Origin: a virus
Strand: one strand, 5' to 3'
Virus record (IMG/VR): IMGVR_UViG_3300018906_000001
Length of the DNA: 64,000 bases
In this document: positions 48,344-48,653 of the stretch, piece by piece
Layout: the number at the start of each line of letters is the position of its first letter
Numbering within the stretch: position 1 is the stretch's first letter
Notes under the pieces: generated by a model
Told to the model about the DNA's origin: nothing
What the model saw: the letters and a program-made list of their open reading frames with translations, nothing else
Databases searched by the model: none
Translations under genes and position numbers: made by a program

Positions 48344-48586
48344 ATGCAAAGCAAGAACGACGAGTGGATTGAGAAGATCAAAGCTATCGAAGCCGACATG
48401 GGTGCATACCAAGAGGTTGTCTACCAAGGAACACCAGTTGGAACACCAGAAACAGGCAACGCCCTAAAGGCACTTACTGAATCTCGGTTCTGGCTTCAAG
48501 AGGACAATGCAAAAAGTGTGATTCGTGCAACTGAATCGAGAAGAAGTGATGCTCAGGGAAGCATGACCGTATCGGCGGAGGTCTAG
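48344..48586 (+). CDS. hypothetical protein
   Basis: ORF track; 3' end overlaps the tRNA-like element. Confidence 0.45.
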   Translation: MQSKNDEWIEKIKAIEADMGAYQEVVYQGTPVGTPETGNALKALTESRFWLQEDNAKSVIRATESRRSDAQGSMTVSAEV

Positions 48587-48653
48587 AACAGTACCGATCG
48601 CTCGTTAACTAAACGAGAAAGACAGAAAGCAGGTTCGATTCCTGCCTTCTTCA
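48540..48653 (+). ncRNA. tRNA-like structured element (non-canonical)
   Basis: GAAGAAG/CTTCTTC 7-bp acceptor stem, ATGCT-CAGGGA-AGCAT D-like arm, perfect T-arm GCAGG-TTCGATT-CCTGC, oversized variable region with CTCGTT/AACGAG hairpin. Confidence 0.45.

Follow-up and report, generated by a model that had tools for sequence, protein, structure and literature searches.

A tRNA-like RNA element with covarying helices at the end of a small open reading frame in a large cyanobacterial phage

The 64,000-nt stretch of phage DNA analysed here (IMG/VR virus record IMGVR_UViG_3300018906_000001; hereafter the window) carries a 114-nt tRNA-like element at 48540-48653, between a small conserved open reading frame (ORF) and a gene for a baseplate wedge protein. 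The element shares its strand with the small ORF, the 3' end of which it overlaps, and a terminator-like hairpin comes after it. A first-pass annotation of the sequence had correctly placed it between a palindromic hairpin (48313-48329, its 'palindrome site 11') and the baseplate-wedge gene at 48722, but overlooked that its first 47 nt, the 5' end, fall inside the 80-codon ORF at 48344-48586. The source is a large phage of filamentous cyanobacteria, and the element is carried by one clade of ~240-kb phages. The baseplate protein has 59 homologs, the named ones being cyanobacterial (a Nostoc plasmid protein and a Timaviella protein), and the small ORF of the window occurs on contigs of up to 243 kb. 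Other genes of the window include those for a portal protein, an integrase and DndB, and there is a TnpB insertion sequence; the element sits within the virion-gene region. Comparison with related phages indicates that the element keeps the upper half of a tRNA under selection, with two covarying hairpins in place of the anticodon region.

Several tRNA hallmarks, most of them listed in the first-pass annotation, can be read directly in the letters: a 7-bp GAAGAAG/CTTCTTC stem with its TG linker, a discriminator A following the stem, a D-like arm with stem ATGC/GCAT and GGG in the loop, the T arm GCAGG-TTCGATT-CCTGC, and the lack of an encoded CCA. For comparison, the baseplate protein and the small ORF upstream of it served as anchors for fetching syntenic DNA from metagenome contigs. 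The element was found in five further distinct variants, each between the small ORF and the baseplate gene, giving the groups L012/L013/L014, L018, L019/L020/L021, L063, L062/L064/L066 and the window type; the window's exact version recurred in six other contigs. A covariance model (R1) built from four variants scored 120-136 bits on all variants and 127.6 bits on the window. Across the six distinct sequences, 98.7% of cells in a five-helix structure were paired and 12 of 26 pairs had changed on both sides. Neither the pairing nor the covariation score was matched in any of 500 shuffles, and sliding the partners by 1-3 columns as a control left 39-51% of cells paired. The helices also covaried in a four-sequence version of the test, and RNAalifold recovered the identical five helices from an independent MAFFT alignment.

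Compensatory change was seen in every part of the fold. The acceptor stem was paired at 7/7 positions in all six variants, with GAAGAAG, GGAGAGG, GGAGGAG or GGAGGGG each matched by its 3' strand and three pairs changed on both sides. The D stem alternated between U-A and C-G at pair 11-24 (three variants each), and two pairs of the T stem changed on both sides (GCAGG, GUAGG, GUCGG, GUGGG). A central helix, here called helix A, was paired in 100% of cells, with four of its five pairs changed on both sides (AUCGG/CCGAU, GGUAG/CUACC, GUCAG/CUGAC, GCUAG/CUAGC), and two pairs did so in the next stem, hairpin B (CUCG/CGAG, CCCA/UGGG). Covariation in homologs had been proposed in the first-pass annotation as a check, and the compensatory maintenance of the acceptor stem, D arm and T arm means that the resemblance to tRNA is not due to chance. 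Identity of the element across lineages was 65-82%, compared with 72-78% for the baseplate coding sequence and 52-65% for the adjacent small ORF. Because all helices compensate and conservation is on a par with the baseplate coding sequence, the element is a real, selected, structured RNA gene rather than a decayed tRNA.

The upper half is that of a tRNA (Table 1). The acceptor/T minihelix has 7 + 5 bp, paired in all cells, and the T loop UUCGAUU is invariant in the six variants. U8 and G9 are present, as is a 4-bp D stem; the D loop carries an invariant CAGGGA with G18 and G19, and position 14, which is A in canonical tRNA, is U in window-type variants. On this comparison, acceptor stem, D arm, T arm and D/T-loop elbow form a complete tRNA upper half that is maintained by selection.

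Table 1. The element, its parts and the flanking features in the window.
Feature	Coordinates	Strand	Description and basis
Promoter-like site TTTACG-17-TGnTAAAAT	48279..48307	+	Consensus scan; 1 found versus 1.2 expected in shuffles, weak
Palindromic hairpin, 5' leader of small ORF	48313..48329	.	Sequence and scan
Small conserved ORF, 80 aa	48344..48586	+	No Pfam/PHROG family; last 47 nt are the element's 5' part; stop TAG in loop A
tRNA-like RNA gene	48540..48653	+	114 nt, no encoded CCA; model R1, 127.6 bits; five covarying helices
Acceptor stem, 5' strand	48540..48546	+	Pairs with 48646-48652; U8 G9 next, at 48547-48548
D arm	48549..48564	+	Stem 48549-48552/48561-48564, ATGC/GCAT; 8-nt loop with invariant CAGGGA
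6-nt joiner GACCGT (RGCCCW in relatives)	48565..48570	+	In the place of a tRNA's single nucleotide 26; alignments
Helix A	48571..48598	+	Strands 48571-48575/48594-48598, ATCGG/CCGAT, 5 bp; 18-nt loop with TCTAGA
Hairpin B	48601..48617	+	5-bp stem, 7-nt loop TAACTAA; A at the U33 position
11-nt purine-rich joiner AAAGACAGAAA	48618..48628	+	Consensus AAAGNCAGNRA; invariant alignment columns
T arm GCAGG / TTCGATT / CCTGC	48629..48645	+	Loop invariant; 2 stem pairs change on both sides
Acceptor stem, 3' strand, and discriminator A (C in L018)	48646..48653	+	Alignment
Intrinsic-terminator-like hairpin and U-tract	48679..48712	+	-19.7 kcal/mol, z = -5.2
Baseplate wedge (gpJ-like) gene	48722..49906	+	phrog_6, E = 5e-13; anchor for relatives

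The lower half differs from that of any canonical tRNA. A GACC/GGTC arm with a CGG (Pro) anticodon, put forward in the first-pass annotation, did not hold up: 57% of its cells were paired over the six variants, and 244 of 500 shuffles did as well. What had been described as a 45-nt variable region with its own hairpin resolved into two conserved helices, A and B, followed by the 11-nt joiner at 48618-48628. Helix A is no canonical anticodon arm, since it starts 6 nt (not one) past the D arm and its loop, variable in sequence as well as in length, spans 13-19 nt (18 nt in the window). Hairpin B starts two nucleotides after helix A; its loop is UAACUAA, GAAGCUA or GAGGCUA. Position 33 of this loop is always A, and three of the six variants (L012, L018, L019) carry U37. 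U33 is the rule for every elongator tRNA, and a canonical anticodon loop has a purine at 37. From hairpin B the joiner AAAGNCAG, invariant across variants, leads to the T stem. Where a tRNA has its anticodon region, the element thus has two covarying hairpins and a conserved A-rich joiner. As a canonical anticodon arm was looked for and not found, the element lies outside the tRNA family as defined by Rfam and ARAGORN.

The loops hold further recurrent motifs. In loop A (48576-48593) YUAGRA is kept in five of the six variants, its UAG being the ORF stop in the window only, and in the loop of hairpin B (48606-48612) CUA is kept in all six; 3-4 bp of pairing between the two loops are possible. 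At the centre of the 5' strand of helix A stand the triplets UCA, CUA, GUA and UCG. Three additional pairings were rejected. Pairing of the loop A UAG with the loop B CUA amounts to 3-4 bp with shifts of register, which column counts cannot test; a 3-bp hairpin 5' to helix A, CCC/GGG or in the window CCG/CGG, is incompatible with that helix and uses other columns in the window; and a pseudoknot of loop A GUC with joiner GAC, although seemingly compensated when the window is compared with L012, fails in L018 and L019, where both strands read GAC.

The element escapes standard annotation (ARAGORN, Rfam) altogether, despite covariation that is very strong for only six sequences. ARAGORN, one of the checks suggested in the first-pass annotation, called no tRNA in the whole 64-kb window in default or intron mode, and Rfam covariance models gave nothing at gathering score. 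At a permissive threshold the Rfam tRNA model (RF00005) reached 19.1 bits, short of its gathering threshold of 29 bits, and aligned with the 3' two-thirds only (48577-48653); in L018, L019 and L063 it had no match at E ≤ 1. The tmRNA models (RF00023, RF04321) were rejected, with 10.8 and 20.7 bits against a gathering score of 47, matches to the T arm and acceptor only, and A3-U70 in the element rather than G3-U70. Folding of the single sequence was only modestly better than that of shuffles (z = -1.97). With no call from the tools and a modest single fold, the case rests on the comparative evidence.

Homologs of the small ORF are present in all relatives, with or without the element, and where the element occurs its overlap with the ORF takes several forms. 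The frame of the ORF tail in the window differs from that in L012, L018 and L019. The stop codon is a TGA straddling element nt -1 to +2 in L062 and L063, falls at the end of the D arm in L018, within the 5' strand of helix A in L012 and L019, and in loop A in the window (nt 45-47 of the element). Because tail frame and stop position differ between variants, the overlap is not constrained by protein sequence. In every variant the stop codon stands at or after the predicted RNase P bond.

Downstream, the terminator-like hairpin starts 25 nt past the element and ends 9 nt ahead of the baseplate ATG. It is conserved in L012, L015, L018, L019 and L078, including sites that lack the element. In L015 and L078-L080 the element is absent and the ORF tail is different (50 nt), with hairpin and baseplate spacing unchanged; the small ORFs of L078 and L019 are 88% identical. 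The more distant relatives L016/L017, L022 and L023 are also without the element. Given that element-free relatives keep the ORF, the hairpin and the spacing, the element is a discrete, dispensable cassette of exactly tRNA-gene size and patchy distribution, which replaced the 3' tail of the ORF in one clade.

No member of the element family was found outside this phage clade in any collection searched. Conserved-motif patterns found nothing real in the genome (one chance match), viral or metagenome contig collections; model R1 had no match in 151 Nostocaceae and 151 cyanobacterial genomes; blastn against GenBank phages gave no match; and a protein-pattern scan of IMG/VR with the baseplate protein gave no match.

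Several features link the element to serine tRNAs. In the genome of Nostoc sp. C052, three of four model matches were tRNA-Ser genes (GGA, CGA and GCU; ~28-32 bits), and the fourth lay in a plasmid tRNA array. The L018 acceptor stem GGAGAGG/CCTCTCC with the following UG is identical to that of these tRNA-Ser genes. The element further shares with the class II tRNA-Ser of cyanobacteria (Nostoc sp. C052 genes) U8 G9, the 7 + 5-bp acceptor/T minihelix and a five-helix layout with 2 nt between the first hairpin and the second. The most likely ancestor is probably a class II tRNA gene of serine type, because tRNA-Ser genes are the best host matches, the L018 acceptor is identical and the layout is class II-like. 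The two also differ. A tRNA-Ser has 1 nt between the D arm and the next helix and a 7-nt anticodon loop, where the element has 6 nt and a 13-19-nt loop; and it has 1-2 nt before the T stem and a G discriminator, where the element has 11 nt, A or C, and a different D loop. A Ser-type acceptor has G1-C72, G2-C71 and A3-U70 with G73, but position 73 of the element is C in L018 and A elsewhere. There is no long variable arm just before the T stem, as the 11-nt joiner separates hairpin B from it. G2-C71 and C11-G24 are identity pairs for seryl-tRNA synthetase (SerRS) in Escherichia coli, and this enzyme does not read the anticodon. The window copy has A2-U71 and has since changed at both pairs 2-71 and 11-24. 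The plasmid array (L027; Nostoc sp. C052, contig C8, ~86.9-90.0 kb) comprises 28 tRNA genes, among them one with a CUA (amber) anticodon (L027:2273-2344), where ARAGORN also gives a dubious overlapping tmRNA call.

We consider the element most likely to be a functional gene for a non-decoding tRNA mimic that is excised by RNase P and RNase Z (probability roughly 0.6). Two of the roles floated in the first-pass annotation, a tRNA mimic and an RNase P/Z processing signal, fit an intact and covarying top half with elbow, the lack of a usable anticodon arm and a position at an mRNA 3' end before a terminator hairpin. A third, a decoy against anticodon nucleases, found no support, as no part of the element looks like the anticodon loop of a host tRNA; it may still act as a decoy for enzymes that recognize the acceptor end.

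RNase P, RNase Z and the CCA-adding enzyme all act on RNAs with an intact acceptor/T minihelix and elbow. An encoded CCA is missing from most cyanobacterial tRNA genes, so its absence here is normal. In the proposed mechanism, the element would be transcribed with the small ORF from an upstream promoter, for which the site at 48279-48307 is a weak candidate, and the RNA would fold into an L-shape. The 5' end would be made by host RNase P, cutting immediately before G48540, and the 3' end by RNase Z, cutting after A48653. The product would then be tailed by the CCA-adding enzyme, as happens with CCA-less cyanobacterial pre-tRNAs. Excision would release a stable RNA of ~117 nt and, in every variant, sever the small-ORF mRNA upstream of its stop codon, leaving a non-stop message. 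The most plausible role for the released RNA would be to bind, as a decoy or sponge, a protein that recognizes the acceptor end or elbow of tRNA-Ser-like molecules. We lean slightly towards the released RNA, over a pure cleavage signal, as the selected product, because the acceptor/T minihelix alone would suffice as a cleavage signal, yet helix A, hairpin B and the joiner have been kept as well.

Stable tRNA-framed RNAs without a decoding role are known elsewhere. RNAs C and D of phage T4 (species 1 and 2) are of this kind, stabilized by host tRNA maturation enzymes, and so is the 'tRNA scaffold' engineered for RNA expression; the T4 RNAs are encoded in a tRNA gene cluster, whereas the phage element lies at the end of a protein-coding gene. 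The t-elements of plant mitochondria direct RNase P/Z cuts at mRNA ends, and once excised they can persist as stable RNAs with a CCA tail (Forner et al. 2007, PMC1920247). They share with the phage element a non-canonical cloverleaf, a GGTTCRANYCC T arm, an acceptor stem, a place at an mRNA end and the absence of any use in decoding. At the nad6 and ccmC t-elements the cut falls inside the ORF and the mRNA loses its stop codon (PMC1920247). This is the geometry of the phage element, whose conserved T arm and non-canonical cloverleaf overlap the 3' end of ORF 48344-48586 and precede the terminator-like hairpin; PMC1920247 documents the ORF-cutting arrangement only for plant mitochondrial t-elements. 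The plant elements are organellar and their processing was mapped experimentally, whereas that of the phage element is predicted. They differ also in the lower half, which is just degenerate sequence in the plant t-element and comprises two helices under compensatory change in the phage, a maintenance that suggests that the excised RNA is itself functional. By analogy, the element would work most like a t-element while looking most like a class II tRNA-Ser.

A number of points weigh against a functional, excised mimic. The element is dispensable, being absent at the same site in the close relatives L015 and L078, and the family is small, with six distinct variants in a single phage clade. The length of the helix A loop varies and 6 nt of it are lost in L012, so part of the supposed payload is unconstrained. 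Both the acceptor sequence and the discriminator have drifted (position 73 is A or C, and the window has A-U in place of G2-C71), which speaks against recognition of these bases by a partner. We infer transcription, ends, CCA addition and stability alike. Among ~50 window ORFs, Pfam/PHROG searches gave no tRNA-processing, ligase, synthetase, reverse-transcriptase or defence-related partner gene.

The best surviving alternative, which we regard as unlikely, is a purely cis-acting element on which tRNA enzymes do not act, for example a structure at the 3' end of the small ORF that binds a protein or stalls ribosomes and adjusts read-through past the hairpin into the baseplate operon. Such a role would suit the fixed position between the ORF and a hairpin that ends so close to the baseplate ATG, which leaves no room for a separate promoter, and the overlap with the ORF, which forces translation and folding to compete. 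However, hairpin and tight ATG spacing are unchanged in L015 and L078 without the element, so the baseplate gene does not need it. Nor is there complementarity between element and hairpin, and a generic structure needs no exact tRNA elbow with invariant D and T loops.

Lower still in our estimate stands a working but unorthodox class II tRNA of serine type, with either a short intron, the 3' part of which pairs with the anticodon as helix A, or an expanded anticodon loop, and possibly with a role as a stop suppressor. The intron version was examined by running ARAGORN on all single deletions of 1-55 nt in four variants. Removal of 16-22 nt (loop A and the 3' strand of helix A) produced class II calls with anticodons UCA (L018), CUA (L019) and GUA (L012). 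Loop A reads U-CUA-G-A in four variants, hairpin B holds its CUA in all six, and SerRS, as noted, would ignore the anticodon. Against this, no two lineages agree on the anticodon (UCA, CUA and GUA; for the window, CGG or ACU), whereas an intron of Lak-phage, archaeal BHB or group I type should leave one anticodon in all homologs. On inspection, the UCA, CUA and GUA models had G or A for U33, a mismatched stem and two nucleotides borrowed from the covarying hairpin B, and the loop-A CUA is deleted in L012. Nothing in the window needs suppressing: TAG is an ordinary stop that ends 34 of 105 long frames, and an in-frame stop joining two long open segments was found once for TAG, 1 time for TGA and 2 times for TAA. 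To our knowledge no bacterial enzyme splices such short introns, an intron of 16-22 nt cannot self-splice, and a group I intron was rejected because the insert is far too short. A precedent is found in Lak megaphages, whose oversized tRNA genes carry unexplained, 'enigmatic introns' (Devoto et al. 2019, PMC6784885). These share with the phage element their excess length, an origin in very large phages, resistance to classification by bacterial tRNA finders and inserts conserved between phage genomes. However, removal of the insert from a Lak gene gives a canonical tRNA with an anticodon, which is not so for the phage element, and host phylum and phage lineage differ.

We give even less credence to a decaying tRNA pseudogene, the remnant of a tRNA acquired long ago and with no present function, the 'decayed tRNA' of the first-pass annotation. 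The absence of a usable anticodon arm, the patchy presence among close relatives, an A-C mismatch in the D stem of L062 and the 6-nt loop deletion in L012 would all suit decay. The covariation contradicts it: 12 pairs in five helices have changed on both sides and are still paired, which neutral sequence does not do, and conservation equals that of the neighbouring structural gene. A recombination site, with the 3' part of a host tRNA copied into the phage as attP for a tyrosine integrase, is the least credible reading, for although tRNA 3' ends are classic attachment sites and a XerC/D-type integrase is encoded at 38403-39365 (-), with a homolog ~1.1 kb from the small ORF in L019, the 25-nt T-arm and acceptor end is absent at 0-1 mismatch from 401 sampled cyanobacterial genomes, the sequence drifts between lineages with matching changes in the 5' strand although an att site requires no pairing, and the element is embedded among the virion genes of a ~240-kb phage.

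The layout of the element is unusually informative, since excision by tRNA enzymes at the end of a coding gene would create a non-stop mRNA. Confirmation would reveal RNA-processing 'punctuation' in a phage and provide a simple system for asking what tRNA mimics do. A bolder extension, which we put forward as a doubtful speculation, is that the element is one case of a widespread and undescribed phage strategy in which a tRNA frame lets host RNase P, RNase Z and the CCA enzyme make a stable non-decoding RNA. Here the product would be a Ser-tRNA look-alike that soaks up a defence enzyme acting on the acceptor end, such as an AbiEii/MenT-type nucleotidyltransferase, and its excision would strip the upstream stop codon, tying protein output to tRNA-processing capacity. 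MenT3, a nucleotidyltransferase of this type, is reported to prefer tRNA-Ser (PMC11541572, PMC11162799).

Other oversized tRNA look-alikes were encountered in phage sequences. A 94-nt phage tRNA (L002:3063-3156 (+) and L001:351-444 (-); 45 bits with the Rfam tRNA model) has a 34-nt insert in the anticodon arm and ends in 25 nt that match the T arm and acceptor end of the window element exactly, an identity that is probably convergent. A neighbouring tRNA (L002:3398-3484; 35 bits, 85-87 nt) has an enlarged anticodon arm. Four tandem look-alikes of 121, 118, 108 and 130 nt lie on a 462-kb metagenome contig (L061:2187-2759), with inserts placed either within the D loop or in the interval from D arm to T arm; one of them combines a GCAGG-UUCGAUU-CCUGC T arm with an 11-nt joiner. 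Look-alikes of 100-110 nt with a GAAGAAG acceptor are present at L003:12298-12404, L009:1202-1305 (-), L010:1873-1976, L008:9573-9682 (-), L011:122-221 (-) and L006:4486-4585; L008 and L011 have a Leu-type D arm, L003 and L009 one long rod for an anticodon arm, and L006 an 8-bp D stem with a 4-nt loop. The look-alikes of L002, L003, L009 and L061 are unrelated to the window element. Taken with it, they suggest that large phages may often keep the tRNA upper half as a frame for non-decoding RNAs.

The GAAGAAG acceptor was considered as a family hallmark and rejected: it is found in 11 oversized elements, but 29 normal-length phage tRNAs (mostly Phe-GAA) share it. The link is probably convergent, because normal tRNAs have this acceptor and the window's relatives have other acceptors. 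Normal-length tRNAs of the phage tRNA-Phe(GAA) lineage with a GAAGAAG acceptor occur in L034, L046, L049, L051, L054 and L057, and have sister genes with 8-nt anticodon loops that ARAGORN reports as 'tRNA-???'. These sisters may be frameshift-type or otherwise unusual decoders.

An IS605-type TnpB gene lies beside the small ORF in the window (46402-47826 (+)) and, in opposite orientation, in L062/L063/L065 (1-1330 (-)), and is absent in other lineages. A TnpB guide RNA was rejected as an identity for the element, since the TnpB insertion is specific to the window lineage, is on the other strand in L062-L065 and is missing from L012, L018 and L019. Opposite TnpB insertions in two close lineages make the spot beside the palindromic hairpin seem a repeated insertion target. 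The XerC/D-type integrase gene is ~9 kb from the small ORF in the window, and its L019 homolog lies at L019:1-380; given this difference in distance, the stretch 39370-48300, with an AIPR gene, TnpB and several unknown ORFs, looks like accessory insertions.

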